The notes: generated from the letters alone by a model not told the origin. A DNA stretch of 32,000 nt from Nodularia sp. (in: cyanobacteria) (GCA_035638855.1 DASQZD010000086.1:55422-87421), one strand, 5' to 3'. Positions 5,486-26,470 are shown, counted from the first letter of the stretch. A program made the numbers and translations.

Positions 5486-5645
5486 TATGGACAGCTGAGA
5501 ACAGAGTTCTAAGTGCTTGATTCACCCACGGGAATTAATTCCTGGGGCTTATACCAACTAATTGATGATTAGTTGGCTCATTAGTATAAATCAGGAAGCA
5601 CTCAGAATGTTGCACTCAGCACTCAAAAATTAGGGTGTAAAATTT

Positions 5646-6932
5646 GTGGGAGTGAAACTAGGAATATTAGGTTTAGGCACTGTCGGCACGGGTACGGTGC
5701 AGTTACTGCAAGATTTGGTGGGACGTAACCCGTTATTGCAGTCCGTGGAAATATATCGAGTGGGAGTGCGATCGCTTGATAAAATTCGGGATGTAGAATT
5801 ACCTGTAGATGTCTTAACGACAGATTTAGAAGCCATTGTCAATGATCCGGCGGTAGATATTGTCGTGGAGTTAATCGGTGGACTCGAACCGGCGCGATCG
5901 CTGATTCTCCAAGCTTTAAACAATGGTAAACACGTCGTTACCGCCAATAAAGCTGCGATCGCGCGTTTTGGGGCAGAAATCTTTACAACTGCTAACCAAG
6001 CCGGGGTATATGTGATGTTAGAAGCGGCTGTAGGCGGTGGTATCCCAGTGATTCAACCCCTGAAGCAGTCCTTAAGCGTTAACCGTATTAATACTATTAC
6101 TGGCATCGTTAACGGTACAACAAATTACATCCTTACCAGGATGCAAACCGAAGGTAGCAACTTCAGCGATGTCTTAGCTGATGCCCAAAAATTAGGTTAC
6201 GCCGAAGCTGACCCCACGGCTGATGTAGACGGTTTAGATGCAGCTGATAAAATTGCCATCCTGGCATCATTAGGCTTTGATGGACGCATCAACCTAGAAG
6301 ATGTCTATTGTGAAGGAATTAGACAAGTCAGCAAGACAGATATTACCTATGCCGAAAAATTGGGATTTGTGATTAAATTATTAGCGATCGCTAAACAATA
6401 CAGCGACTCATCTCCCCTCTCAGTCAGAGTGCATCCCACCTTAGTACCCAAAGCACATCCATTAGCTAGCGTTAACGGTGTATATAATGCCATTCTCATC
6501 GAAGGAGAACCCATCGGGCAGGTAATGTTTTTTGGACCCGGTGCAGGTGCGGGTGCAACAGCCAGCGCCGTCACCTCAGATATCTTAAATTTAGTTGCTG
6601 TCCTCAAAACCAGTACAACCAACCCAAATCCACTCTTAACTTGTGGACACCAAGATTACTGTCAAATTGCCCCAATCACAGAACTAGTAACGCGATTTTA
6701 TGCCCGATTCCTCACCAAAGACCAACCAGGAGTTATTGGTAAATTGGGTACTTGCTTTGGCAACTATGGCGTTAGCTTAGAGTCAGTAGTCCAAACAGGC
6801 TTTCACGAAGGACTAGCAGAAATTGTGGTTGTCACCCGCGATGTGCGAGAAGGAGATTTTCGGCAAGCCCTAACAGAAATTCGCAATTTAGAAGCTATAG
6901 ATAGTATTCCCAGTTTACTGCGAGTGCTGTAA
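5646..6932 (+). CDS. hom: Homoserine dehydrogenase
   Basis: A GTG start leads into the Rossmann motif LGILGLGTVGTG. The motifs TANKA, GGIPVI, NGTTNYILT and YAEADPT..D..G.DAA.K are present, followed by a C-terminal ACT-like domain. Confidence 0.93.
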   Translation: MGVKLGILGLGTVGTGTVQLLQDLVGRNPLLQSVEIYRVGVRSLDKIRDVELPVDVLTTDLEAIVNDPAVDIVVELIGGLEPARSLILQALNNGKHVVTANKAAIARFGAEIFTTANQAGVYVMLEAAVGGGIPVIQPLKQSLSVNRINTITGIVNGTTNYILTRMQTEGSNFSDVLADAQKLGYAEADPTADVDGLDAADKIAILASLGFDGRINLEDVYCEGIRQVSKTDITYAEKLGFVIKLLAIAKQYSDSSPLSVRVHPTLVPKAHPLASVNGVYNAILIEGEPIGQVMFFGPGAGAGATASAVTSDILNLVAVLKTSTTNPNPLLTCGHQDYCQIAPITELVTRFYARFLTKDQPGVIGKLGTCFGNYGVSLESVVQTGFHEGLAEIVVVTRDVREGDFRQALTEIRNLEAIDSIPSLLRVL

Positions 6933-7646: not shown

Positions 7647-9896
7647 GTGCATGAAGACTTGCAGCGTGGAAATTATGTGGCAATATCAGGGATGGGAGGC
7701 GTAGGCAAAACCGAATTAGCTACCCAATACGCCAAAAGATATCAAGAGAGTTATGGCGGTATTGCTTGGTTCAATGATCGCAACAGTAATCTTGCTGCTG
7801 AAATTTTGGAGTTTTTTATCAAGCTTGGTTTGGAGATTCCCCAAGAACTAGGGGGAAAACTGTTAAGCCTAAAAGAACAAGTTGCTTGGTGTTGGTCTAG
7901 ATATCCTGACTCTACCTCGCCTATATTAATTGTCTTCGATGATGTCACAGACTTAGCCAACCTCCGCCAAGTCTTACCCGAAGACCAACGCTTTTGCGTT
8001 TTGGTGACAACTACACCACGAATTTTAGACCCGAATTTTATTCAAGAGATTTCTTTAGATGTTCTTTCTCCAGAAAAAGCATTAGAACTGTTAAAACGAT
8101 TGTTGGGAAACACAGACAGGCGAGTTGATAACCAATTAGAAGCTGCAACTGCAATATGTGAATGTCTGGGATATTTGCCTTTGGGGATAGAGTTAGTCGG
8201 AGGTTATTTAGTCCGCGACCCAGGACTATCTCTGAATACAATGTTTGAGAGGTTAAAAACCCAAAAATTAGCTGAAATATCTTTACAGCGAGAGCCAGAT
8301 TCTACCATTGGTCAAGCGCAACTGGGAGTCAAAGCAGCGTTTACCTTAACTTGGGAAAAACTTGACCCCCTCACACAACAATTAGGAAAATTTTTGAGTT
8401 TATTTGCTCCCCAACAGATTCTTTGGGATTTGGTGAATTGGGTGGCGACAGATGGTGGGAAAGCAGAAGATGAAGCAGCAACACAGCTAACTTGGTCACA
8501 AGAGGAAATAAACTCAGCCAAAAAGCAACTTTACGCACGTAACTTGCTGCAACTGGTAGAAGCTACAGAAGGAGAATATTATAAAATTCATGCTTTGGTG
8601 CGGTGGTTCTTGCAAGAACAGTTAACTAATTCTGGGGAAATAAAATCAGTTTTAGAAACAACCTTTGCTTCTGCCATGATATCTGTAGCTCATTACCTTC
8701 CCCAATCACCCACTTCTGAGGATATCGAAAGCGTCAAGGATGTTGTTCCCCATATTGAAGACTTAGGAAATAGGATAATTGCTGATATTCAGCCAGCAGG
8801 AGAAGCACAGATAAATTCTCCAGCATCAGTTCCCAATGATCAAGTAATTTGGATATTTGTAGGAGTAAGCAGATTTTATGCAGGACAAGGACTATATAAA
8901 TTAGCAGAACCTTGGCATGAGCAATGTGTAAATGTTTGCCAAGCTTTGTTTGCTGGCGACCATCCTGATGTGGCTACTAGCTTGAACAATTTAGGCGAAC
9001 TCTATCGTAGTCAAGGGCGGTACAGTCAAGCCGAACCTCTTTTCATTCAAGCCTTGGAGATGAAAGAGCGCTTGTTTGTCGGCGACCATTCCAATGTGGC
9101 TACTAGCTTGAACAATTTAGCTTTTCTCTACAAAAGTCAAGGGCGGTACAGTCAAGCCGAACCTCTTTTCATTCAAGCCTTGGAAATGACACAGCGCTTG
9201 TTTGCCGGCGACCATCCCAATGTCGCTACTAGCTTGAATAATTTAGGCGAACTCTATCGTAGTCAAGGGCGGTACAGTCAAGTCGAACCCCTCTTGATTC
9301 AAGCTTTGGAGATGACACAGCGCTTGTTTGTTGGCGACCATGCCAATGTCGCTACTAGTTGGAACAATTTAGCTCTACTCTACCGTGGTCAAGGGAAGTA
9401 CAGTGAAGCCGAACCTCTTTTCATTCAAGCCTTGGAGATGACACAGCGCTTGTTTGCCGGCGACCATTCTGATGTCGCTACTAGCTTGAACAATTTAGCC
9501 GAACTTTATCGTAGTCAAGGGCGGTACAGTCAAGCCGAACCCCTCTACAAAAAAGCCTTGGAGATGAGGCAGCGCTTGTTTGCCGGAGACCATCTTGATG
9601 TCGCTACTAGTTGGAACAATTTAGCTCTACTCTACCGTGGTCAAGGGAAGTACAGTGAAGCCGAACCTCTTTTCATTCAAGCCTTGGAAATGACACAGCG
9701 CTTGTTTGCCGACGACCATCCCAATGTCGCTACTAGCTTGAACAATTTAGCCGGACTCTACGACAGTCAAGGGCGGTACAGTGAAGCCGAACCCCTCTAC
9801 AAAAAAGCCTTGGAGATGTGTCAACGGGTATTAGGGGTTAATCATCCCACTACAGCGACAATTAAAGAAAACTTGGCAATTCTGCGACAACGTTAA
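7647..9896 (+). CDS. NB-ARC (STAND) NTPase with C-terminal TPR array; coding-like sequence continues upstream in frame to 7545
   Basis: The P-loop GMGGVGKTELA lies at 7689..7712. Other motifs are the Walker B-like LIVFDDV, the GLPLGIELVGGYL helical motif, and 7 full plus 1 partial 42-aa TPR units. The conserved pre-P-loop peptide YIPYRGSVHFVGREQELTRV is encoded at 7590..7646, upstream of the first canonical start (GTG at 7647). Confidence 0.8.
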   Translation: MHEDLQRGNYVAISGMGGVGKTELATQYAKRYQESYGGIAWFNDRNSNLAAEILEFFIKLGLEIPQELGGKLLSLKEQVAWCWSRYPDSTSPILIVFDDVTDLANLRQVLPEDQRFCVLVTTTPRILDPNFIQEISLDVLSPEKALELLKRLLGNTDRRVDNQLEAATAICECLGYLPLGIELVGGYLVRDPGLSLNTMFERLKTQKLAEISLQREPDSTIGQAQLGVKAAFTLTWEKLDPLTQQLGKFLSLFAPQQILWDLVNWVATDGGKAEDEAATQLTWSQEEINSAKKQLYARNLLQLVEATEGEYYKIHALVRWFLQEQLTNSGEIKSVLETTFASAMISVAHYLPQSPTSEDIESVKDVVPHIEDLGNRIIADIQPAGEAQINSPASVPNDQVIWIFVGVSRFYAGQGLYKLAEPWHEQCVNVCQALFAGDHPDVATSLNNLGELYRSQGRYSQAEPLFIQALEMKERLFVGDHSNVATSLNNLAFLYKSQGRYSQAEPLFIQALEMTQRLFAGDHPNVATSLNNLGELYRSQGRYSQVEPLLIQALEMTQRLFVGDHANVATSWNNLALLYRGQGKYSEAEPLFIQALEMTQRLFAGDHSDVATSLNNLAELYRSQGRYSQAEPLYKKALEMRQRLFAGDHLDVATSWNNLALLYRGQGKYSEAEPLFIQALEMTQRLFADDHPNVATSLNNLAGLYDSQGRYSEAEPLYKKALEMCQRVLGVNHPTTATIKENLAILRQR
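8946..9827 (+). repeat. Seven tandem 126-nt (42-aa) TPR-coding repeats with very high nucleotide identity
   Basis: The unit consensus is LFAGDHPNVATSLNNLAELYRSQGRYSQAEPLFIQALEMTQR. The 89 nt at 9348..9436 are identical to 9600..9688, exactly two periods (252 nt) apart. Confidence 0.9.
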
Positions 9897-11468: not shown

Positions 11469-11930
11469 CTACTTCCAATCGGGGAACATATCTCCTCCAT
11501 CTTCTCCACCAATACCGATTCCAGTGTGATAAATTTCGGCATCAGTGATGATCATCTGATCCATTGATGCTCCATATACATTAGAGTCATAAATTTGAGC
11601 GCGAGTCAGATTCGCTCCGTTGAGATTAGCTTGTTTAAAATTAACGTTCGTCAGCATAGCTGAAGTTAAATTTGCACCTTTCAAATTAGCATTAGTTAAG
11701 TCTGCGCCTTCGAGATTGACTCCTTCGAGGTTAGCTCCAGAGAGATTTGCTCCCCGTAAGTCAGCACCAATTAAATGCGCGCCTCTGAGGTTAACCCCGG
11801 ATAAATTGCACTGGACACAATGTCTGGTCAAATTTAGCTTTTGTAAGTCTTGGGAATTACCAGCGTTAACTGTGCTATTCAAAATTAGGGGAGTTGCCAA
11901 GGCTAGAGCCGCGAATAGCTGGAGTTTCAT
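11469..11930 (-). CDS. Pentapeptide-repeat protein with signal peptide (probably lumenal or periplasmic)
   Basis: The signal peptide is MKLQLFAALALATPLILNSTVNA. It is followed by consecutive A(D/N)LxG-type pentapeptides (ANLSGANLEGVNLEGADLTNANLKGANL..). Confidence 0.9.
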   Translation of the reverse strand: MKLQLFAALALATPLILNSTVNAGNSQDLQKLNLTRHCVQCNLSGVNLRGAHLIGADLRGANLSGANLEGVNLEGADLTNANLKGANLTSAMLTNVNFKQANLNGANLTRAQIYDSNVYGASMDQMIITDAEIYHTGIGIGGEDGGDMFPDWK

Positions 11931-13874: not shown

Positions 13875-16475
13875 TTACAGACGTTCCTTTGGTAAGAAGG
13901 CAATAGGATCAATTGCTCCCTTACCTCCTGGGTGGATTTCAAAGTGAGTGTGTGGCCCTGTGCTGAAACCAGTGCTACCCATGTGAGCAATTTGTTGCCC
14001 TTGGGTCACCTGTTGACCTGCTCGCACTAAAGTCCGGCTATTGTGAGCATAGCGAGTTATAGTGCCATCTTGATGGCGAATCTCCACAAGGATGCCGTAA
14101 CCACCTCTGTTCCAGCCGGATTTTTCCACCACACCGTCGGCGGCTGCGAAAATTGGCGTACCAGTGGCGTTAGCAATGTCAATACCCCTGTGCATTCTTC
14201 CCCAGCGTCTACCATAGCCGGAGGTAAGTACACCTTTTGCCGGCCACATATAGGATGAGGATATTGAATCGTTGGAAGGGGGGAGTGTAGTCGCGTCAAT
14301 TGGTCTGGGCAAGTATTGTTCCACTGCTGCCAAAGGCGGTAACTGTGGCCGTAATTGTGGACTAACACTGCTTCCCCGCAAGTTTCCGAGAGTGTCAGAG
14401 ATGTCAGCACCTCTGGGAGATATTACTGTTCTATTGTCAGAATTGAGACTGGAGGAGAACTCTGGATTGATTGGCTCGTTGACCCGACGAGTACGGGCTT
14501 GGGAATTAGCCGATTGACCATAGCCAGGTAAATTCAGGCTGGGAACACGAATGGGAATCGACGCATTCTTTTGTCCGAAAGCAGGTTGAGAAGCCGTGGC
14601 ATTATTCGGTTTAACAACAGGAATTGCTATGGGAGCTTGTTCACGTTCAGTCGTGGCTGGCCTGATTGCATTCCCCGACTGTTGCTGGCGATATTCCTCG
14701 CGTAATCTTTGGATTTCCGCTTCTGGGCTGTTTCTTTGAGCAACGGTAGTCGCTATGGGAGCTTGTTTACGTTCAGTGGCGACTGTCGTGATTGCATTCC
14801 CGGACTCTTGGTTGCGGTATTTCTCCTGTAATCTCTGAATGTCCGCTTGTAGGCTGTTTGTTGGAGCAACGGGAATCTGTACAGCAGCTTTCTCTAGTTC
14901 AGTAGCGGCTGGCCTGGTTGCATTCCCCGACTGCTGGTTGCTGTGTTTGTCCCGTAATCTCTGAATGTCCGCACGTAAGACGCGCAGACCTTGTTGATCT
15001 TTTGTGCTTTCCGTTTGCTGAGTCGATTTTTGAGACTGCTGCATTTCGGCAAAGATTGTTGGTACTGGTGTATCACCACCTAGTCCCAGAGGATCAGGAG
15101 TAGTAGATTCGGTCTCTGTGGCTGTAACAGTATTTATCTGGCTCTGGTTATTCGCAGTTAGTGGTGTGGGGATAGTTAAACTGTTGTTATTCCCAGATGA
15201 TGGTAACTGTGATGAAGCAGAAGGGAGACTGGGGTAGTTATTAGCAGTGTTCAGGGGGTAGTTGACTAGCTGTGGCATACTCCTGGAATACCCGCTATTG
15301 GAGTTAACTACTATTGGTGTGGGAATAACTGTAGGGCGGTTAACCTGAGTAACAGGGATAATCAGCCTTTGGCTAATTTTAATTTGATCAGGATTGTTAA
15401 GATGATTTGCCTTAACTAGTTCTGATATAGAAATATTGTATCTACTCGCGATGGTAGCTAGTGTGTCTCCGGGTTTAACTTCGTAACCTGTATTAGCCGC
15501 TAAGGACACAATTTGTGGTGTAGCTGCTACGGGTGTGGTTAAGGCTTGCGGGTTCGACTCACTGGTGTTTTGTCTTTGTTTTAACCTCGATACTAAACCT
15601 TCTGTGTTGTCATTGTTGAAAGTTGATGACTCTTCTACTACCGTTTGACGAGCGCTGATTTCTGGCGCTGTTTGTGTCGTTTTCGGCTGTGTCAAAGCTA
15701 TATCATTGTTTGATAAAATTTGGGTCTCCTCAGACCGCAACTCCGCCAGACTGTTTCTTAAACGGTTCGATTTTTCTTGTAAGCGATTGAGTGCAAATTC
15801 CTGCTGCGCCTTTAGTTGAGCATTAATTTCACCACTGGGATCTGTGTTTTCCAGTGCCTGTGGTTGTGGTTCGCTTGTTAAGTACGCCGTTGATTCGTCC
15901 GTTTGATTAGTAACGTTATCAGCACTAGACAGTTTTTGTACTGTCTCATTTGATGGGATTTGGGTTGGCAATCCCTGTGATACTGGGGATTGTAAATAGG
16001 GGGAAGTTTTGTTAGCTGCTGTTCTGTTAGATTCTGATGTCGGAACAGGAGCTGGCACAGACATTCCACTCGCCGTAACTTGCCATTTAGCTTCAAGCCC
16101 GGATAACTGTGAAATTGCTGTTGGTTCCACGATGACAGGATTTTCTGGCAAGCTTGCTAATAAGACTGTTTGAGTCTCTAGCTTTGTGGAAGCAAATTTC
16201 ACTGTAGTGTCAGAAGCAGCTGGAATTGTTGTGGCTGCCTTTTGGCTACCAACAGGAGCTGCTGCTTGGGCTTGATCGCTTTGTCGAGTCACTAAAAGGC
16301 TGGTTGCTCCCATGGAGATAGCCAAACCAATCATGGCGGCTTGTGTCCGCGCCCGGCGGTTAACCTTGGGATTAACTACAATATTCAGGTGTTCTAGGTG
16401 TTCCACTAGGGCATCATCATTGCTGGGGGTATTTTTCAGCACAGCCTGTTCTCTTTTTTTCAATGCTCGTTTCAA
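13875..16475 (-). CDS. LysM-domain M23 (LytM-type) peptidoglycan endopeptidase with a long low-complexity linker
   Basis: The C-terminus carries HRGIDIA..GTPI.AAADGVV and GSTGFSTGPHTHFEIH, the M23 HxxxD and HxH motifs. The LysM segment is YEVKPGDTLATIASRYNISISELVKANHL. An N-terminal TM anchor is present. The start is TTG, with AGGAGG 6 nt upstream at 16483..16488. Confidence 0.9.
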   Translation of the reverse strand: MKRALKKREQAVLKNTPSNDDALVEHLEHLNIVVNPKVNRRARTQAAMIGLAISMGATSLLVTRQSDQAQAAAPVGSQKAATTIPAASDTTVKFASTKLETQTVLLASLPENPVIVEPTAISQLSGLEAKWQVTASGMSVPAPVPTSESNRTAANKTSPYLQSPVSQGLPTQIPSNETVQKLSSADNVTNQTDESTAYLTSEPQPQALENTDPSGEINAQLKAQQEFALNRLQEKSNRLRNSLAELRSEETQILSNNDIALTQPKTTQTAPEISARQTVVEESSTFNNDNTEGLVSRLKQRQNTSESNPQALTTPVAATPQIVSLAANTGYEVKPGDTLATIASRYNISISELVKANHLNNPDQIKISQRLIIPVTQVNRPTVIPTPIVVNSNSGYSRSMPQLVNYPLNTANNYPSLPSASSQLPSSGNNNSLTIPTPLTANNQSQINTVTATETESTTPDPLGLGGDTPVPTIFAEMQQSQKSTQQTESTKDQQGLRVLRADIQRLRDKHSNQQSGNATRPAATELEKAAVQIPVAPTNSLQADIQRLQEKYRNQESGNAITTVATERKQAPIATTVAQRNSPEAEIQRLREEYRQQQSGNAIRPATTEREQAPIAIPVVKPNNATASQPAFGQKNASIPIRVPSLNLPGYGQSANSQARTRRVNEPINPEFSSSLNSDNRTVISPRGADISDTLGNLRGSSVSPQLRPQLPPLAAVEQYLPRPIDATTLPPSNDSISSSYMWPAKGVLTSGYGRRWGRMHRGIDIANATGTPIFAAADGVVEKSGWNRGGYGILVEIRHQDGTITRYAHNSRTLVRAGQQVTQGQQIAHMGSTGFSTGPHTHFEIHPGGKGAIDPIAFLPKERL
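14601..14978 (-). repeat. Three tandem 126-nt (42-aa) repeats inside the M23 peptidase linker
   Basis: The three units are LRADIQRLRDKHSNQQSGNATRPAATELEKAAVQIPVAPTNS, LQADIQRLQEKYRNQESGNAITTVATERKQAPIATTVAQRNS and PEAEIQRLREEYRQQQSGNAIRPATTEREQAPIAIPVVKPNN. Confidence 0.85.
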
Positions 16476-19227: not shown

Positions 19228-19332
19228 GTTGTTCTCCTCGCCTCTCCTAATCTAAGAATTGTATCGAATTAGACGAATTTCTGCATCTACATTTAAATTA
19301 ACTTAAGATTTACAATTATTTAAGAATTAACG

Positions 19333-19403
19333 AACCACAGAGGCACAGAGGACACAGAGCTTAATTCTTCCTTTGCGCCTCTGCGCCTGGTGCGTGACAC
19401 TAA
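19333..19403. repeat. Direct-repeat copy A flanking the helicase/PLD cassette
   Basis: aaccacaga...ttcttcctttgcgcctctgcgcctggtgcgtgacactaa matches copy B at 25477..25551. Over the ~39-nt core there is one mismatch and one 1-nt indel, in the same orientation. Confidence 0.85.
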
Positions 19404-19427
19404 TCCATATTTTCCCTCACCAACACC

Positions 19428-21206
19428 TTAACTTTTCCCTCTCCTCTTCCTTGGAGGCGGACTTTGTGAGAGGATAAAATGATCCGGTGAATCATTTTCC
19501 TGAGCAATGTTGAGACGCAGAAATTGCGCCCATACTTGATCACTAAGTAAGTTTAAAGCTGTTTCAGGTTGGTGAGATGCGATCGCATGGATAATTTTTC
19601 GCCATCCTTGCTGTAAGGCTTCCATAAAAATTTCCTCACCGGAAAGCTGACTCAGTAGAGAAAGTGCAGTTGCTAAACTTATTGAATTATCTAATATTTT
19701 TTGTGACGTTAAATCGTGAACTATGATATTTAACCACACTGGGAGAAGTTCCCACCAGTGGCTTGCTTGTATCTCCTGAAGTGCTAGATTTTGCATACCC
19801 AGCGCCCCCCAAATGCATAAAGCTTCTACAGCTAATTCAAAATCGTGTTTTTCTAAAGCAATATTCCATTGTTTTTGGGCATGATTTTGGCAACCATGAG
19901 CCAGAAATTGATATGCTTCTTCTACTTGCTTGGGAATAGTAACTTGATAAACAGACTCACCACATGGTAAATATTCGCCACCACAGTCAACCGAGTCATA
20001 AAAACCATAAAAATGAATTTCTTGATCAACTATAACTTCTTTAACATGGGAATTTCCCATACAGAAAAATTGTACAGATGGTAAACCCTCAGGAGTTTTG
20101 ATAGCGCGGAGTTTTTTTTCTACTTCTGCTTGTTCTGGCGAAATTCCATATCCAATTAAAATCCACACTCCGCTATTAGCTAATTTTTGTAAAAGCGTCA
20201 AAAATTCTTTATTGATAACAGCTTCACTCAAGGAAGGAGAATAGATAATAATTTGCCTTTTAGCAGAATTTAACACCTCTCGAAAAGCGGGAATAACTTC
20301 AGTATCGCCTAGTTTTAAAGCTCCTTGGCTAATTTTTTTTAGTCTAGATTCTATTTCGTCATTTTTATATTTCAGAGTGGCTTTACGCTCCAAATCAATG
20401 GATTCATTGGACAATTTACATAAAGATTGCCAAGGTATTTTACCTTTACCTTGCAGCACTTCCATTCGTTTTGATGCTGATTCTAAAATTTGCTTACCAT
20501 TTCTGATTTGGATACTCAATTTATCTTTCCCAGCATCCCAAATCACAAACAAAGATATGTTTTTCCAGATTATTTGCGCCGGGGCTAAAACCTTACATTT
20601 AGTAACAATTTTTCCTAATTCGGGGACATGAAAATCTAAACCTGACAACTGAATACATTTCTGTAACTTCTCAAGTGATAAAGCAGATATATCGTTAATC
20701 TTGCGAGCAATCTTGATAAATTCAGCTAAATCAGGTAAATTTAAAGGAGCATCATTGCATGGTTCAGCATGAAATATCAGCTTTCCGTCTAAAGCATCGG
20801 AAACTGCATATATTTGCATAGGATAAGTCGGCTGTGGTACAGAACCTTTAGCGTAAAAAGTCCGCCCTTCATCTGTAACTGTAATCGGCGATGTTGCGGA
20901 TAAAGTTTGTAATGTTTGCAAATTTGCAGTGGTACTGCGGACAAATATAGAATCAAGTCCTAATATAGATGCTAATTCATCTTCTGTGGGTGGAGGTGAA
21001 AATTCAATTCCAGCGCGGATAATAAATTCTTCAAGTAGATTAAATTCGCGCGGTTCCTGAATGGATAACTCTACAGGAGTTTGATGTAAACTATAACGAA
21101 ATTCCCTCGCAGCTAAAACTGATAAATCAGGATTTTGCGCTGTAATTTCCTCTACTAAATTTCTGAGTTTGTCGTCAATAGGTTTAGCCGCAGCAGCGAG
21201 AAACAT
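19428..21206 (-). CDS. wHTH + single-HKD phospholipase-D-family nuclease-like protein with C-terminal helical domain
   Basis: Residues 388-402 read H-V-K-E-V-I-V-D-QEIHFY-G, which fits HxK(x)4D(x)6G (nt 19995..20048). Upstream is the PLD-like strand/helix pattern RQIIIYSPSL...LQKLANSGVWILIGY. The N-terminus LEEFIIRAGIEFSPPPTEDELASILGLDSIFVRST looks winged-helix-like. The ATG at 21206 has AAGGAGG 8 nt upstream at 21215..21221. Confidence 0.7.
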   Translation of the reverse strand: MFLAAAAKPIDDKLRNLVEEITAQNPDLSVLAAREFRYSLHQTPVELSIQEPREFNLLEEFIIRAGIEFSPPPTEDELASILGLDSIFVRSTTANLQTLQTLSATSPITVTDEGRTFYAKGSVPQPTYPMQIYAVSDALDGKLIFHAEPCNDAPLNLPDLAEFIKIARKINDISALSLEKLQKCIQLSGLDFHVPELGKIVTKCKVLAPAQIIWKNISLFVIWDAGKDKLSIQIRNGKQILESASKRMEVLQGKGKIPWQSLCKLSNESIDLERKATLKYKNDEIESRLKKISQGALKLGDTEVIPAFREVLNSAKRQIIIYSPSLSEAVINKEFLTLLQKLANSGVWILIGYGISPEQAEVEKKLRAIKTPEGLPSVQFFCMGNSHVKEVIVDQEIHFYGFYDSVDCGGEYLPCGESVYQVTIPKQVEEAYQFLAHGCQNHAQKQWNIALEKHDFELAVEALCIWGALGMQNLALQEIQASHWWELLPVWLNIIVHDLTSQKILDNSISLATALSLLSQLSGEEIFMEALQQGWRKIIHAIASHQPETALNLLSDQVWAQFLRLNIAQENDSPDHFILSQSPPPRKRRGKS

Positions 21207-24200
21207 CAACGAAACCTCCTTGACTATCTACAGTATGAGAAATCTCTAAATACATACTTCCGACTTTTCCCCCTTGACGGGTAAATAAATCGTGACAACC
21301 CACAATTACGAGTAATTCTTGGGCGCGAGAAAAAGCCACATTCACCCGTTCTGGTTTCTTTGCAAAACCGACATCACCTTGATGATTATTCCGCACCATA
21401 CTTACTATTACCACAGCGCGTTCCATTCCCTGAAATCTATCAACTGTACCTGTGCGAATTTCCAGCGAAGGAAAAAGTTCAGATTGTAAACGTTCATCAA
21501 TTTTTTTCAATTGCGCGCCATAGAATGTAATTACTGCAATTTCCTTTTTTGGTTCCCCATTGGCAATTTTAGCAGCCCAAGTATGCTCGAATTGCTGACA
21601 CAGGCGTTCAATGACATCAATTTCACGAGTATTAAAATAAGAAGTATTTTCCCGTTCTTCTTCAAATTCCAGTTCTCTGGGAATTTTTACCCATACCAGA
21701 TGGTGATTTTTTTGGATAATTTCCCCTGTTAAATTATGGGCGCGTTGAGTGTCAGGTTCTAAAAGTCCACATTCTAGTTTACCCTGATAAAACTGATTAA
21801 TCGCCCCCATAATAAAGGGGTGCATTCTATATTGTGTATTCAGCATTTGTTTGATGCTTTTATCAGCAGCTTCAAACTGAATTTTAAATAATGATTCTTC
21901 TAAAAATTGCAGTTCGGATTTGCTACTGCCAAGTGATTGGGCAACTTCTTCAACTGTGCTAGTATCAAGCATGGGTGGTAATTGTCGATGGTCTCCTACC
22001 AAGACTAACTTTTTACCTTTTAAAGCTGGGATGAGTAACTCTGGTGGAGTACATTTACTAACTTCATCGATGATGACGACATCAAAGGCTTTAAATTCTT
22101 GGGAAAAGTTGTAATTTGCAGCTTGTACGCAAGTGATACCGACGACGTTAGCGTTATCTAAATAAATGCGTCTTAAATCGTTGCGATCGCGCTCTGATGG
22201 ATTTTTAACTTTTGCAATCCAATCTTTGGTAAAATCCTGGTATCGGCTGAGATAAGTTTCTTCTTGATTCAGTTGGTTTTCCCAAGCATCAAACTGAGTT
22301 TTGATATTGTGTAAAAATTCCAGATTAAATAAATCTGTAGGGATATTTTCTGGCTGAAATTTATCAGGTATGTTTTTACAGAAATTTTCCCACCAATTTC
22401 TTGATAAAATTAAATCTTCGGTTGGTTGTATCTGTAGTTGCTGATCTAATTTATTGAGTTGGGCTTGGATTTTTTTGAGTTGCTTTTGAGCAAGTGCGTT
22501 TTCTTGTTCTATAATTGTTATTTGCTCATCTAAAGACGTTTTGATGTTTTCTAAGACTTGGAAAGGTGCAATTGATGAAATTAAAGTTTCTAAATTGCTA
22601 AGATGAGTAACCGCAGCATTCACCTGAGTTGCAAATTCTGAAGAATCTTCCCAAATTTTTGATTGCGTAGTCAGATATTCTGTAACTAAAGCCCGCAATT
22701 TATCAGGGAGATTTTGCTGCTGGTTGAGTAATTGCAAAATCTCGATAACTTGTGTAAGCTTGATATTAGCTGCTTCGATTTGAGATGAAGTCGCAGATAT
22801 TTGTGCTTGAGTAGTTCTGTGTTTTTCAAGTTCAATTAATTGCTGTTGGAAAGACTCAAGCTGTTGTTCAGTTTCAGCCTTAACTCGTGCGATACATTGA
22901 CGCGCATTTGCGAGGATATTGGTGAGTAAGTCTTCACTAACTTGTTTAATAGTAGAGTCGAGATTATTTAATTCCCAGGCTTTACCATATACTGTTTGCA
23001 TTCTCAGCAAAAACAACTGCGTATGTTCCACCAGTAATTGGCGCTGATGTGGGTTGAGGAGTTGATAATTTTTGAACTCTTCATAGATTTTACGCCATTG
23101 AGTGCGATCGCTCGCACATAGCACAATGGGAATTTGACTAAAATTTTGCTCTAAAAAGTAACTAAAATTATATTGTTTACCGATTCTATCAGCGAAGCCG
23201 CCCTCAGTCTCATAAGTCAAGGCTTTTTGTAAAGCCTTCCAATCTGGGAAATTAAGCTGATATTTTTTTGCTACTATAGTTAATTTTAATTGATTAGCAA
23301 ACATCAACAAACCCAATGGTAATTGCAGCAAATCTTCTGTTAATACTTGTCCTGATTGCTGGCATTCCTTAACTATTTGATATAATATCACAGGTGCTGT
23401 AGACTTCCATTCCTTAATAGCTGCAATCACATAATCAATTTCGCGTTGGCGATTTTGCCAACCTTGAATTGTCTGCTGTAAAATTTGCCGCTTGGCGATA
23501 AATTGCTGTTCATCTATTTCTGGTGAATTCAGATTTTGAGAATTTTGGGGGATAGCCGATACCGCTTCTGCAACTTCCGACATTACTAAAATGGCATCCT
23601 CTGCGTAATCGAATGCTATTCTAAAGTCAGCAATTTTATCAGCTACACTGTCACGCAACCAAACAGCCAACCCAAAAGCACCATAAGCAGGACGCACTAA
23701 ACCAAGTTCATCAGTCCACTTGATAGCTTCACGAACATTGGTTAAAAATTCTTTAACTACAATATTATCTTCTGTATATGGCTGAAGATATGGTAAACAA
23801 TTTGTGACTTCTGAAGCTTCCCAATTTATATTCGCTGCATTTTCTAGGAGATAATCTAAACCTAAATTGATAGATTCCACCTGCTTTTTCTTATTTAAAC
23901 TTTCCTGATAAATTTTTTCTTGAATTTTACAGTCTGCTGCTAAACTTTCCTTTTCCTGATTTAATTGATTTTCTTGGTGATTTAGCTCTAATTCTAGGTT
24001 AAAATAATCTGTAAATCTTGGTATTGCTGCCAATAATTCACTCAATATTTTAACATTTTCCAGACGTTTATTAAGACTACTTTCACAGTCAGTCGCCGTA
24101 TTTTCCAGCCATGTTTCAATAACTTGGTCTTCTAAAAATGGCTGTCCTTCCTCCCCAACTCTCTCCGCGCGTCCTTTACGTACAGCCCGAATAACTGGGT

Positions 24201-25410
24201 TATGAACTAATCGACTCAAAGCATTATCCACAGCTAAATTAGCTTGAGAAGCGATGAGAGTACGTCCACCCCGCAGGGCTATTTGATAACAAATCTCGGC
24301 AATCACGGTAGTTTTACCAGTACCTGGCGGTCCTTGAATAAGAACCAAATCTTCAGATGCTAATACCTTTTCCACTGCTGCTTTTTGTCCAGCATTAGCA
24401 GAAGATAATAACAAATCATCCGCTTGAAGTTCCACAGTTTTTTTCATCCGTCTTGCTTGGGAAGCGTCGAATAAAAAGTTACCCAAGTAGGGATTTTGAG
24501 TTTGTCCGTGTTTTAGTTGTTCTAAAGCTTCTTTCTTGCGCCGAACTTGTTGAATATCCCCAGCAGCATCAAAAAATAAAAATCCCTTCACTGGTGGCTG
24601 ATAACGTTGTGTAGCGATATATTCAGCTAATTCTCGTTCTAATTTAACTTTAATTAAACAATTTTTCGGATCAACTTTTTCAATTGAACCAAATCTAGGA
24701 ATTTTATGAGTAAATTTTCCTGTAGGAACAGTTTCCGAAAGTTTCACTTCTTGGTTTTTTGAACGTTTCACCCGTTCCCAGAAACTAGCGACATTTAAAT
24801 AATTTTGTTCAGAACCATCAAGAGTAGCTGAATTCACATCTACTTCAAAAGTAATTTGTCTGGTATTATTTCCATAATCATTACCGATAAAAGCTACACA
24901 AAACTGACGGGCTTTCGCAATATTTTCCTCAACTTGCAAAAAAGCTTTCCAAGCTTGCAATTGGTCTTCCGTAGGTATATGATCACCACACACTGGCATC
25001 TTTTCCACACGTGACAATGCTGCTTTGGGAATACCTAAACGATGTTGCTCATGAGGTAAAAGACGTAAACGAAAAGGAACAGCATAACCATCAGTGTGTC
25101 CCCGTGAAACTTGTAATAAACGAGTAGATAAAATTTTTAAACCACCGCGCCCATCTTCTTGAATAGCTGCAATTAAACCTAAAGTTTTGCCTTGCTTTTC
25201 CAGCTTTACAGGTAAGGGAAAATCATCTCTATCAGTTGCAATTGTTAACTGCCAAATTTCCTCATTTGGATTTTTTCCCGCACCTTGACGACGCACATAA
25301 AACAAATAAACTTGATCAGCTAATAAGTCTATTATCTCATCTTTAGCCACTGCTCCGACGCACTTATAGCTCCAGCTTTCTGAATTGTGATTGTTAGAAA
25401 AAGTGGGCAT
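21184..25410 (-). CDS. Upf1/Dna2-like superfamily-1 helicase (AAA_11/AAA_12 type) with ~330-aa unknown N-domain and ~700-aa coiled-coil insertion
   Basis: - Motif I: LIQGPPGTGKTT (nt 24307..24333).
- Motif Ia: TLIASQANLAVDNA.
- Motif II: VVIIDEVSK (DE at 22063..22068, residue ~1115).
- Motif III: LVLVGDHRQLPP.
- Motif IV: YRMHP.
- Motif V: TVDRFQGMERAVVIVS.
- Motif VI: RVNVAFSRAQ. Confidence 0.85.
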   Translation of the reverse strand: MPTFSNNHNSESWSYKCVGAVAKDEIIDLLADQVYLFYVRRQGAGKNPNEEIWQLTIATDRDDFPLPVKLEKQGKTLGLIAAIQEDGRGGLKILSTRLLQVSRGHTDGYAVPFRLRLLPHEQHRLGIPKAALSRVEKMPVCGDHIPTEDQLQAWKAFLQVEENIAKARQFCVAFIGNDYGNNTRQITFEVDVNSATLDGSEQNYLNVASFWERVKRSKNQEVKLSETVPTGKFTHKIPRFGSIEKVDPKNCLIKVKLERELAEYIATQRYQPPVKGFLFFDAAGDIQQVRRKKEALEQLKHGQTQNPYLGNFLFDASQARRMKKTVELQADDLLLSSANAGQKAAVEKVLASEDLVLIQGPPGTGKTTVIAEICYQIALRGGRTLIASQANLAVDNALSRLVHNPVIRAVRKGRAERVGEEGQPFLEDQVIETWLENTATDCESSLNKRLENVKILSELLAAIPRFTDYFNLELELNHQENQLNQEKESLAADCKIQEKIYQESLNKKKQVESINLGLDYLLENAANINWEASEVTNCLPYLQPYTEDNIVVKEFLTNVREAIKWTDELGLVRPAYGAFGLAVWLRDSVADKIADFRIAFDYAEDAILVMSEVAEAVSAIPQNSQNLNSPEIDEQQFIAKRQILQQTIQGWQNRQREIDYVIAAIKEWKSTAPVILYQIVKECQQSGQVLTEDLLQLPLGLLMFANQLKLTIVAKKYQLNFPDWKALQKALTYETEGGFADRIGKQYNFSYFLEQNFSQIPIVLCASDRTQWRKIYEEFKNYQLLNPHQRQLLVEHTQLFLLRMQTVYGKAWELNNLDSTIKQVSEDLLTNILANARQCIARVKAETEQQLESFQQQLIELEKHRTTQAQISATSSQIEAANIKLTQVIEILQLLNQQQNLPDKLRALVTEYLTTQSKIWEDSSEFATQVNAAVTHLSNLETLISSIAPFQVLENIKTSLDEQITIIEQENALAQKQLKKIQAQLNKLDQQLQIQPTEDLILSRNWWENFCKNIPDKFQPENIPTDLFNLEFLHNIKTQFDAWENQLNQEETYLSRYQDFTKDWIAKVKNPSERDRNDLRRIYLDNANVVGITCVQAANYNFSQEFKAFDVVIIDEVSKCTPPELLIPALKGKKLVLVGDHRQLPPMLDTSTVEEVAQSLGSSKSELQFLEESLFKIQFEAADKSIKQMLNTQYRMHPFIMGAINQFYQGKLECGLLEPDTQRAHNLTGEIIQKNHHLVWVKIPRELEFEEERENTSYFNTREIDVIERLCQQFEHTWAAKIANGEPKKEIAVITFYGAQLKKIDERLQSELFPSLEIRTGTVDRFQGMERAVVIVSMVRNNHQGDVGFAKKPERVNVAFSRAQELLVIVGCHDLFTRQGGKVGSMYLEISHTVDSQGGFVDVSRCCG

Positions 25411-25476
25411 AAATACTTTTAAACTTCCTGAAATTAGGTGAAATAATAAACTTTAGCTGTTGATGAAGAAATGAAA

Positions 25477-25551
25477 AACCACAGAATAACACCGCGACAA
25501 ATTTCTTTCTTCCCTCTTCCTTTGCGCCTCTGCGCCTCTGCGTGACACTAA
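25477..25551. repeat. Direct-repeat copy B flanking the helicase/PLD cassette
   Basis: The sequence is aaccacaga...ctcttcctttgcgcctctgcgcctctgcgtgacactaa. It abuts the TGA stop (25553..25555) of the deacetylase gene. See copy A. Confidence 0.85.
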
Positions 25552-25552
25552 C

Positions 25553-26470
25553 TCATAACCTATATTGATGATAAACCTGACTAGCCGCCCGATGCAGCAA
25601 AGAATGTCGCCAAACCAGAGACTTCATATCATCAGCGTACCCCCCACCAATCACACAAGCCACGGGATAACCAGCACCCACACAGGTGCTTAAAACCTGC
25701 ATTTCCCGGCGAAAAAGACCACTATCACTCAAAGCTAACTTTCCCAAGCGATCGCCTATATGAGGATCTACCCCTGCATCGTATAATACTAAATCTGGCT
25801 GAATATGCGCTAATAAATCTGGTAAATAATTCGCCAAAGTTTGCAAATAAGCATCATCTTCCATTCCCACCGTCAAGGGAACATCCAAATCACTAATTTG
25901 TTTAGTACCGGGAAAATTAACCTCACAGTGCATTGAGAAAGTAAATACACTCTCGTCACCTTGGAAAATGAAAGCTGTACCATCTCCTTGATGCACATCT
26001 AAATCGACAATCAAAATTCTCTGCACAAGTCCCAATTTTTGCAAAACTCGACAAGCGATCGCTAAATCGTTGAAAATACAAAAACCAGAACCATAACTAG
26101 GAAAAGCATGATGAGTACCACCAGCCGTATTACAAGCCAAACCTTGACTTAGTGCCATCTGTGCCGTCAGTATTGTACCACCAACCGCTACACAGGTGCG
26201 ATTTACCAATTCTAGACTCCAAGGTAAGCCAATTCGACGCTGTGCTTTTGGTTCTAGTGTTCCCTCGCAGTAAGCTGTAACGTATTCTGGGGTATGCACC
26301 AACTCGATTAACTCCGGCGCTGGGCGCTTGGGTGTGTGAAATTGTTCGGTTTGCGCCACACCGTCAGCTAACAGCAATTCATAGAGTTTTGCGAACTTCG
26401 ACATGGGGAAGCGATGCCCTGCCGGCAGTGGTGCAATATAATCTGGGTGGTAAATAATTGGCAATTCCAT
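25553..26470 (-). CDS. Histone deacetylase-family protein (AcuC / acetylpolyamine amidohydrolase-like)
   Basis: The motifs GGTHHAFPSYGSGFCIFND, VDLDVHQGDGT and GGGY are present. I prefer the ATG at 26470 (MELPIIYHPDY..) to the track start at 26530, which adds an unlikely hydrophobic 20-aa leader. Confidence 0.88.
   Translation of the reverse strand: MELPIIYHPDYIAPLPAGHRFPMSKFAKLYELLLADGVAQTEQFHTPKRPAPELIELVHTPEYVTAYCEGTLEPKAQRRIGLPWSLELVNRTCVAVGGTILTAQMALSQGLACNTAGGTHHAFPSYGSGFCIFNDLAIACRVLQKLGLVQRILIVDLDVHQGDGTAFIFQGDESVFTFSMHCEVNFPGTKQISDLDVPLTVGMEDDAYLQTLANYLPDLLAHIQPDLVLYDAGVDPHIGDRLGKLALSDSGLFRREMQVLSTCVGAGYPVACVIGGGYADDMKSLVWRHSLLHRAASQVYHQYRL

Follow-up and report, generated by a model that had tools for sequence, protein, structure and literature searches.

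Mokosh defense systems combine a COG1112/Upf1-like superfamily 1 (SF1) helicase with a nuclease of the phospholipase D (PLD) family. In type I, two adjacent, co-directional genes encode the helicase MkoA followed by the nuclease MkoB, and a Ser/Thr-kinase (STK) domain has been described in MkoA (Millman et al. 2022, bioRxiv 10.1101/2022.05.11.491447); in type II (MkoC, e.g., E. coli YjhR), members of the same helicase and PLD families form the N-terminal and C-terminal parts, respectively, of a single fused polypeptide, and the protection reported for type II was limited to an ssDNA phage. Protection against phages via the helicase ATP site and the PLD site has been shown only for three systems expressed in E. 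coli (Millman et al. 2022, bioRxiv 10.1101/2022.05.11.491447), and an analogy with the MOV10L1/Zucchini (PLD6) pair of the piRNA pathway has been drawn for Mokosh (bioRxiv 10.1101/2022.12.12.520048). Here we analyze a stretch of 32,000 nucleotides (nt) from Nodularia sp. (in: cyanobacteria) (GCA_035638855.1 DASQZD010000086.1:55422-87421; hereafter, the window), in which two overlapping open reading frames (ORFs) on the minus strand encode an MkoA-like helicase and, downstream of it, an MkoB-like PLD protein. This locus is probably a two-gene defense module homologous to Mokosh type I that represents a kinase-less subfamily.

Both ORFs are intact across 6 kb. In searches against the PADLOC models, run by per-protein hmmscan, the 1,408-aa helicase matched both MkoA models (PDLC03920, E=6.3e-112; PDLC03921, E=1.4e-105), with scores far above those for any other helicase family, and the 592-aa partner matched the MkoB model PDLC03922 (E=4.4e-20, profile positions 16-406 of 610); profile coverage was about 42-45% for MkoA and 64% for MkoB. 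The MkoC model was matched at 4.9e-36 and 5.8e-5, and no specific NCBIfam model was found for either protein. The PADLOC MkoB model was also matched by 39 of 39 diverse full-length MkoB-like relatives (best, 4.5e-37). Given the strong MkoA and MkoB matches together with those of all 39 relatives, the pair belongs to Mokosh type I as current profiles define it. Like type I, it consists of two adjacent genes, one for a Upf1-like helicase with an intact ATP site and the other for a partner with the HxK(x)4D PLD motif, and the MkoB profile extends over both the N-terminal region and the PLD part of the nuclease. In contrast to type II, the helicase and the PLD protein are encoded by distinct ORFs, with a stop codon and a change of frame between them, and type II proteins lack the N-terminal winged helix-turn-helix (wHTH) and middle-domain module of MkoB. 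The original prediction, made from the sequence alone, had described overlapping genes for a 1,408-aa SF1 helicase and a 592-aa PLD protein, as the ORFs and motifs bear out, and had likened them to Mokosh type I, a likeness that the profile scores confirm (MkoA 6e-112, MkoB 4e-20); it also suggested a new variant or a new system. As judged by profile matching, the locus is already captured by the existing Mokosh type I models and is not a new system, and only the variant layout stands.

The helicase motifs I (GPPGTGK366T), Ia, II (VIIDEV), III, V and VI are all intact. Pfam recognizes AAA_11 (split) and AAA_12 only; the PDB matches are to IGHMBP2, Upf1 and Dna2 (E 1e-35 to 1e-32), and Foldseek places the helicase core with Dna2, IGHMBP2, SETX, Upf1, Sen1 and ZNFX1 at probability 1.0. 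AlphaFold2 models were built from a shallow alignment of 24 sequences that are 64-91% identical, and the RecA parts are poorly predicted in both models, so that no claim is based on those parts.

No kinase domain was detected in MkoA, as originally predicted: there is no Pfam Pkinase match at E<=1, and positions 10-285 of PDLC03920 are unmatched by residues 1-335. A cyanobacterial Ser/Thr kinase encountered incidentally in a related locus matches these same positions (E=4e-25), which indicates that PDLC03920 begins with the STK domain reported by Millman et al. for type I MkoA. Whereas 620-1030 profile positions precede Walker A in the type I models, MkoA of the window has about 335 residues there, and residues 1-335 show a single weak PADLOC match, to positions 863-1011 of PDLC03921, just before the helicase (E=5.7e-4). 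The N-terminal domain of about 330 aa proposed at the outset can be delimited to residues ~22-335. It is modeled as two beta-rich subdomains over residues ~30-300 (pLDDT 70-89), shows 28-45% identity across the helicases of distant relatives, and has no PDB match at E<=1e-3 in the structural search, which gave only marginal matches to beta-barrels and SETX. In most Nostoc and Cylindrospermum, and in several distant helicases (e.g., L003, L004, L086 and L091), an extra N-terminal segment of ~85 aa matches Pfam IF2_N, which explains why NCBI labels these helicases 'translation initiation factor IF-2 N-terminal domain-containing protein'; this segment is absent from the helicases of the Nodularia clade, including MkoA of the window.

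The other departure from the type I layout is within RecA1. MkoA was profiled against PADLOC as four separate pieces: residues 336-480 and 961-1408 matched adjoining positions in both MkoA profiles (619-751 and 730-1081 of PDLC03920), and residues 481-960 matched no PADLOC profile. Thus, the helicase core, contiguous in the MkoA profiles, is interrupted in the window protein. The region ~426-1085 is modeled almost entirely as long helices of 35-61 residues (pLDDT mostly 70-90), and the span unmatched in PADLOC together with the helical span puts the length of the insertion at ~540-650 aa; the coiled-coil insertion of the original prediction therefore exists, although not at the ~700 aa given there. 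This is the part of MkoA with the highest ratio of nonsynonymous to synonymous substitution rates (dN/dS). Foldseek returned only generic matches of the insertion to SMC-type arms (MukB, JetC, cohesin) at TM-scores of 0.07-0.10, and on these scores homology to SMC proteins was rejected. As in SMC/Rad50-type ATPases, long helices totaling hundreds of residues split a P-loop ATPase, but the ATPase here has the SF1 helicase fold, not the ABC-type one, and the resemblance is that of generic coiled coils, without evidence of homology. As read from profiles and models, the kinase-less layout with a beta-rich N-domain and a helical insertion in RecA1 is an undescribed architectural variant of Mokosh type I; a literature search found no paper describing this subtype, or Mokosh in Nostoc, Anabaena, Nodularia or Nostocales.

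MkoB has an alternative TTG start at 21209, which yields 593 aa, and the ATG at 21206, which yields 592 aa. The ATG form is the one in public data, where 'hypothetical protein VE956_17000' from a Nodularia sp. metagenome-assembled genome (MAG) matches it at 100% identity; an exact look-up of the 593-aa form in protein records gave no match. The MkoA and MkoB reading frames share 23 nt on the same strand, and an overlap of 17-23 nt is kept in distant relatives. The N-terminal residues ~45-125 of MkoB are its best-conserved N-terminal block, with the lowest dN/dS in the gene, and may adopt a wHTH fold, as suggested by the match of the family profile to MarR-family regulators in PDB (E=8e-4). The wHTH and helical extensions had been predicted to set this nuclease apart; the wHTH is weakly supported by the MarR match, but neither feature is a deviation from Mokosh, since the MkoB profile covers residues 45-397, the N-terminal region included. 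When 1.84 billion representative proteins were searched exhaustively, only 269 MkoB-related clusters emerged, and no phage-borne homologs were found.

Table 1. Features of the MkoA-MkoB locus in the Nodularia window
Feature	Coordinates	Strand	Basis
MkoA-like gene, 1408-aa Upf1/IGHMBP2/Dna2-type SF1B helicase	21184..25410	-	ORF, PADLOC, Pfam, PDB, Foldseek
Conserved N-domain, two predicted beta-rich subdomains, residues ~22-335	24406..25347	-	Conservation in relatives; AlphaFold
Walker A / motif I, GPPGTGK366T	24310..24333	-	Sequence; invariant across 24 orthologs
All-helical (coiled-coil-like) insertion in RecA1, residues ~460-1000	22411..24033	-	PADLOC gap, AlphaFold helices
Predicted helical region, residues 426-1085	22156..24135	-	AlphaFold
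Remainder of RecA1 and RecA2 (motifs II, III, V, VI)	21187..22410	-	PADLOC MkoA profile 730-1081/1112, E=4.5e-83
Motif II / Walker B, VIIDEV	22060..22077	-	752 residues downstream of Walker A
Shine-Dalgarno AAGGAGG for MkoB, within the MkoA 3' end, 8 nt ahead of the MkoB ATG	21215..21221	-	Sequence
MkoB-like gene, 592 aa: wHTH, middle domain, single-HKD PLD, helical C-terminus	19428..21206	-	ORF, PADLOC MkoB, family alignment
Putative winged-helix (MarR-like) region, MkoB residues ~45-125	20832..21074	-	Family profile vs PDB
PLD motif H387-x-K389-x4-D394-x6-G401-F-Y-D404	19995..20048	-	Family alignment; GFYD in place of consensus GSxN
Intergenic repeat copy 1, ~20 nt 3' of the MkoB stop	19366-19409 (wider 19322-19409)	.	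Repeat search
Intergenic repeat copy 2, at or just 3' of the deacetylase-like stop codon, upstream of MkoA	25515-25557 (wider 25466-25557)	.	Repeat search

Nine distant relatives of the pair were compared: four with MkoB homologs of ~17-32% identity (L086-L089), three plasmid copies (L090-L092) and two copies from Anabaenopsis (L093, L094). In 9 of the 9, a split-AAA_11 helicase is encoded directly upstream of an MkoB-type gene, so that the pair is indeed co-conserved, a check that the original prediction had proposed. The two genes overlap in L086, L087, L088, L091, L092, L093 and L094; in L090, the helicase overlaps a fusion gene (see below), and in L089, the helicase is broken into two genes (418+822 aa) at the insertion, and 12 nt separate it from the MkoB gene downstream, without overlap. 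The distance from Walker A to motif II, where measured, is 574-1047 residues. The RecA parts are 40-71% identical and the N-domain 28-45%, and the insertion is barely alignable outside Nostocales. The kinase-less layout with a split RecA1, common to every relative sampled, is by this comparison a trait of the subfamily.

The surroundings of these relatives include mobile elements and defense genes. On the Cyanobacterium HL-69 plasmid (L092), the pair is located between hsdR and genes for HicB, XerD and toxin-antitoxin components, and L091 is carried on a conjugative plasmid of Aulosira. L086 is flanked by a gene for a MmeI/Eco57I-type methyltransferase on one side and by NYN, DEAD-Helicase_C-MZB and UvrD genes on the other. 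In L087 (4186-13352), an 89-aa ORF, an HNH gene, MkoA and MkoB are found between purE (AIRC) and purK, an arrangement that looks like an insertion into this housekeeping pair. Anabaenopsis elenkinii (CP063311.1), with a 4.5 Mb genome, keeps the syntenic pair (L094) and has a second, insertion sequence (IS)-flanked copy (L093) amid a DDE transposase, RadC, a transposase fragment and a TnpB-like gene, with an MkoB that is ~36% identical. An HSP70 - DnaJ/TPR - HSP70 trio precedes the distant pair in L088 (1-13194), where a gene with a ParB_N domain follows, and a DnaJ gene is nearby in L089, so an association with chaperones is possible.

The most telling relative is on plasmid pC052_C of Nostoc sp. 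C052 (L090, 5277-12025), where three genes are inserted in a BREX-1 operon, with pglX on one side and pglZ on the other, and the first of the three encodes a helicase of this subfamily. The first 282 residues of the second protein are MkoB-like (35% identity), its C-terminus is DarT (Pfam 9e-16), and the third gene encodes an ADP-ribosylglycohydrolase. Judged by these domain assignments, this locus is a natural swap of the PLD effector for DarT and looks like an undescribed helicase-DarTG hybrid. MkoB of the window, unlike DarTG, carries PLD and not DarT, and L090 bears on it only through the modular logic.

Turning to the window pair, its neighbors are housekeeping genes, coding for RodA/FtsW, a histone-deacetylase-like protein, a GCS2 glutamate-cysteine ligase, a SpoU methylase and a LysM/M23 peptidase, which identifies the housekeeping flanks noted at the outset. 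The order deacetylase - MkoA - MkoB - GCS2 - SpoU - LysM/M23 recurs in Nodularia NIES-3585, Umezakia, Cylindrospermum, Nostoc, Anabaenopsis, Atlanticothrix and Scytonema. For Halotia, the fetched stretch covers the downstream half alone (MkoB-GCS2-SpoU-M23). At least eight Nostocales genera share this site among the fetched loci. When one genome per species was scanned, at least 183 relatives were identified, a lower bound because the patterns used (GSHNWLSY and W[LI]G..H.K) miss Nodularia-type sequences. The best 80 of these at least 183 loci, with ~100 more distant genomic matches outside the set, all come from Nostocales, the one exception being a MAG with the label Chroococcales (L035), and in nearly all of them GCS2 follows MkoB. 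Relative to Nodularia NIES-3585 and Umezakia, the synonymous rate (dS) of MkoA and MkoB is 0.33-0.58, equal to that of the flanking genes, and dN/dS is 0.17-0.24 for MkoA, 0.26-0.33 for MkoB and 0.10-0.20 for the flanks. The window pair is intact and under purifying selection, and the Nostocales module is, from its synteny and dS, a gene pair passed on vertically at one fixed site of the chromosome. The association with defense islands that the original prediction called for is seen in the wider family, among its distant members in islands and on plasmids, but not in the window copy or its orthologs, which behave like core, syntenic genes across the sampled Nostocales; an outcome that the original prediction had named as refuting it, core homologs outside defense islands, is in part borne out for this copy.

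A repeat of ~45 nt is present on both sides of the pair (0.06 matches expected by chance), consisting of GGATTAGTGTCACGCA followed by two or three GAGGCGCA octamers and AAGGA, with the tandem of GAGGCGCA octamers as its core. The direct repeats initially predicted are therefore real, but they do not mark a mobile insertion. Diverged copies occupy both orthologous sites in Nodularia NIES-3585, none exist in Umezakia, and the gene order is older than the repeats; in L002, the copies lie at ~5620-5700 and ~11790-11860. Insertion scars or target duplications were rejected on these grounds, and from its distribution the repeat is a Nodularia-specific intergenic repeat, not a boundary of mobile insertion. 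On the coding strand, it directly follows two stop codons, and it is possibly a 3'-end or terminator element, or a dispersed STRR-like repeat. In scans for promoter and terminator consensus sequences, counts were near the shuffled expectation, with no convincing promoter upstream of MkoA, and the Rfam scan of the window revealed no RNA family.

Elsewhere in the window, a 749-aa ORF (7647..9896, plus strand) contains a 126-bp (42-aa) tandem repeat of 6.9 copies that match at 83-90% (8946-9818); in translation, the 42-aa unit resembles a TPR-type repeat. The LysM/M23 peptidase gene (13875..16475, minus strand) likewise holds a 126-bp tandem repeat, of 2.8 copies (14615-14972), which coincides with a local GC content of 0.51 and a strong AT skew.

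The PLD motif of the window protein is altered. The signature reads H387-V-K389-EVIV-D394-x6-G401; the His had been predicted as H388, which is the same residue numbered from the TTG start. The family consensus is HxK(x)4D(x)6GSxN, with GSHN in 89 of 114 close Nostoc-type sequences, and the full HxK(x)4D(x)6G(S/T)xN signature is absent from the window MkoB (HVKEVIVDQEIHFYGFYD), which has Phe in place of Ser and Asp in place of Asn. G[FL]xD takes the place of GSxN in all Nodularia/Umezakia-clade sequences with a located motif (15 of P0001-P0016; P0012 unmatched). H or K is lost in further family members (P0121, P0184, P0192 and P0204). Because H, K and D are kept and the derived motif is conserved in the clade, we read the pocket as altered, possibly weakened, but not dead: by the alignment, the change of GSxN to GF[YF]D in the Nodularia/Umezakia clade may modify or weaken catalysis.

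Several points weigh against the assignment of the window pair to a working type I defense module. The copy lies outside any defense island, at a fixed housekeeping site and with dS equal to that of its neighbors, which is unusual for defense genes and compatible with a domesticated role. The conserved Ser and Asn of the PLD motif are missing throughout the Nodularia/Umezakia clade, the catalytic His is also lost in two proteins of this clade, and the Pfam PLDc_2 match of MkoB is below threshold (15 bits against a cut-off of 27). The sole reported attempt at purifying a type I Mokosh system failed, a literature search for the type I mechanism (kinase, condensate) gave nothing relevant, and the adaptor and specificity roles proposed below are drawn from comparative data only.

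The strongest alternative, which we nevertheless consider rather unlikely, is that a Mokosh-like pair was fixed in the ancestor of Nostocales and now performs a cellular, not an immune, function; it might survey or turn over RNA, remove R-loops, or process intermediates of DNA replication or repair, as do eukaryotic Upf1, Senataxin, IGHMBP2 and Dna2. Such domestication would fit with the syntenic site between deacetylase-like and gshA-type GCS2 genes in Nodularia, Umezakia, Anabaenopsis, Cylindrospermum, Nostoc, Atlanticothrix, Scytonema and (downstream half) Halotia; with purifying selection at a neighbor-like dS; with the retention of the pair in the 4.5-Mb Anabaenopsis genome alongside a separate mobile copy; and with the identity of the nearest solved structures, which are helicases of cellular RNA and DNA metabolism. 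Nostoc offers evidence on both sides. In many of its genomes, the MkoA-MkoB interval has been invaded by genes for an SBF transporter, a Na/H exchanger, a hemolysin-type protein, a glycogen-debranching enzyme, sensor kinases and Uma2, and the helicase remains intact even when separated from MkoB by several kb of unrelated genes. The interval itself was mostly rejected as a candidate defense island, its defense-like cargo being limited to Uma2 (PADLOC PDC-S17) and a TPR-CHAT protein. However, turnover of the accessory type is also apparent. A second helicase copy overlaps MkoB in about a dozen loci and often is fragmented (L017, L018, L021, L040, L056, L059), two tandem MkoA paralogs lie upstream of one MkoB in many Nostoc genomes (L014, L016, L027, L028, L050, L051, L058, L074, L078, L082; at about 5.2-10.0 kb of each locus), and the helicase appears to be absent within 10 kb in some Nostoc loci. 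Tandem paralogs in one genome share 80-91% identity in the RecA parts and only 32-34% in the insertion, and the second insertion type is 74-86% conserved between Nostoc genomes; taken together, the divergent insertions in near-identical cores and the conserved second type indicate that the insertion behaves as an exchangeable cassette. Also contrary to domestication, the nuclease active site erodes in some lineages, dN/dS of MkoB is ~2-3 times that of its neighbors, close family members are plainly cargo of defense islands or plasmids, and a literature search gave no paper tying these genes to a cellular phenotype.

A still less likely explanation is that the Nodularia-clade nuclease has lost catalysis through the change of GSxN to GFYD and that the pair is an eroding relic, persisting through residual helicase-only or scaffolding activity. 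The motif replacements in the 15 proteins, the loss of His, or of H or K, in individual members, and the subthreshold PLDc_2 match are all consistent with this scenario, as is the dN/dS of 0.27-0.39 in the PLD and C-terminal segments, which is higher than elsewhere in MkoB. However, H387, K389 and D394 are kept, dN/dS is well below 1 in every segment, both ORFs are intact, and the conservation of the derived GF[YF]D across the clade suggests a stable alternative and not random decay. Finally, a new, distinct defense system sharing only domains with Mokosh is very improbable: the MkoA layout does depart from published type I (no STK, extra insertion, different N-terminus) and the N-domain lacks a structural match, but both proteins are full-length homologs of the Mokosh profiles, with an MkoB match that runs from the N-terminal through the middle to the PLD region, other helicase families score far below MkoA, and gene order, pairing and effector type are those of type I.

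The window pair thus differs from described Mokosh type I in the missing STK domain, the ~540-650 aa helical insertion that splits RecA1, the altered GSxN motif and the syntenic, vertically inherited setting without a defense island. Among cellular proteins, Upf1, IGHMBP2, Senataxin and Dna2 resemble MkoA in the sequence and predicted fold of the helicase core. In Upf1, domains 1B and 1C are inserted in RecA1, at the same topological place as the accessory insertion of MkoA; the latter, however, is several times longer and all-helical, MkoA has a separate PLD partner, and, unlike the eukaryotic SF1B helicases, it contains neither a CH domain nor a Dna2-type nuclease. The MOV10L1/Zucchini pair likewise combines a Upf1-like helicase with a single-HKD PLD nuclease, a likeness at the domain level only. 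The DarTG resemblance is confined to the plasmid relative L090, where the MkoB N-terminal module is fused to DarT and followed by an ADP-ribosylglycohydrolase.

If the locus is a kinase-less Mokosh type I defense module, as we favor, a scheme of its action can be proposed. MkoA and MkoB would be translationally coupled, given the gene overlap and the internal Shine-Dalgarno sequence. The helicase would load on foreign single-stranded nucleic acid, the probable target; the DarT variant hints at single-stranded DNA as the substrate, and RNA, which has been proposed for Mokosh, could also serve. Because PLD is swapped for DarT in L090, the N-terminal ~290 residues of MkoB (wHTH and middle domain) may be a docking adaptor that joins the effector to the helicase, with the C-terminal part as the exchangeable effector, PLD here and DarT in the plasmid relative. 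Single-HKD PLD nucleases (Nuc, BfiI, Zucchini) dimerize to make one active site, and by analogy, MkoB would dimerize and then cleave the nucleic acid loaded or unwound by the helicase. A role in specificity or regulation may fall to the helical insertion together with the N-domain, since it is the insertion that differs between otherwise near-identical tandem paralogs.

On a more tentative note, the comparative data might be read as those of a modular immune sensor, with three exchangeable parts: a Upf1-like motor, the long coiled-coil insertion as a swappable cassette for specificity, and the MkoB N-terminal adaptor, which can bear varied effectors (the PLD nuclease or the ADP-ribosyltransferase DarT). 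In Nostocales, one copy could have stayed at the same chromosomal site from before the divergence of the genera, either as a 'germline-encoded' locus of innate immunity whose diversification in situ proceeds by tandem helicase paralogs, or else co-opted for cellular nucleic-acid surveillance in the manner of Upf1 or MOV10L1/Zucchini; we regard this as possible but rather unlikely. With its conserved N-domain, cassette-like insertion and natural replacement of PLD by DarT, the kinase-less subfamily yields testable hypotheses on which part of Mokosh senses, which docks and which kills. A fixed, vertically inherited locus would be an unusual evolutionary mode for a defense system, and Nostoc and Anabaena are genetically tractable hosts in which to ask whether this module is immune or domesticated.

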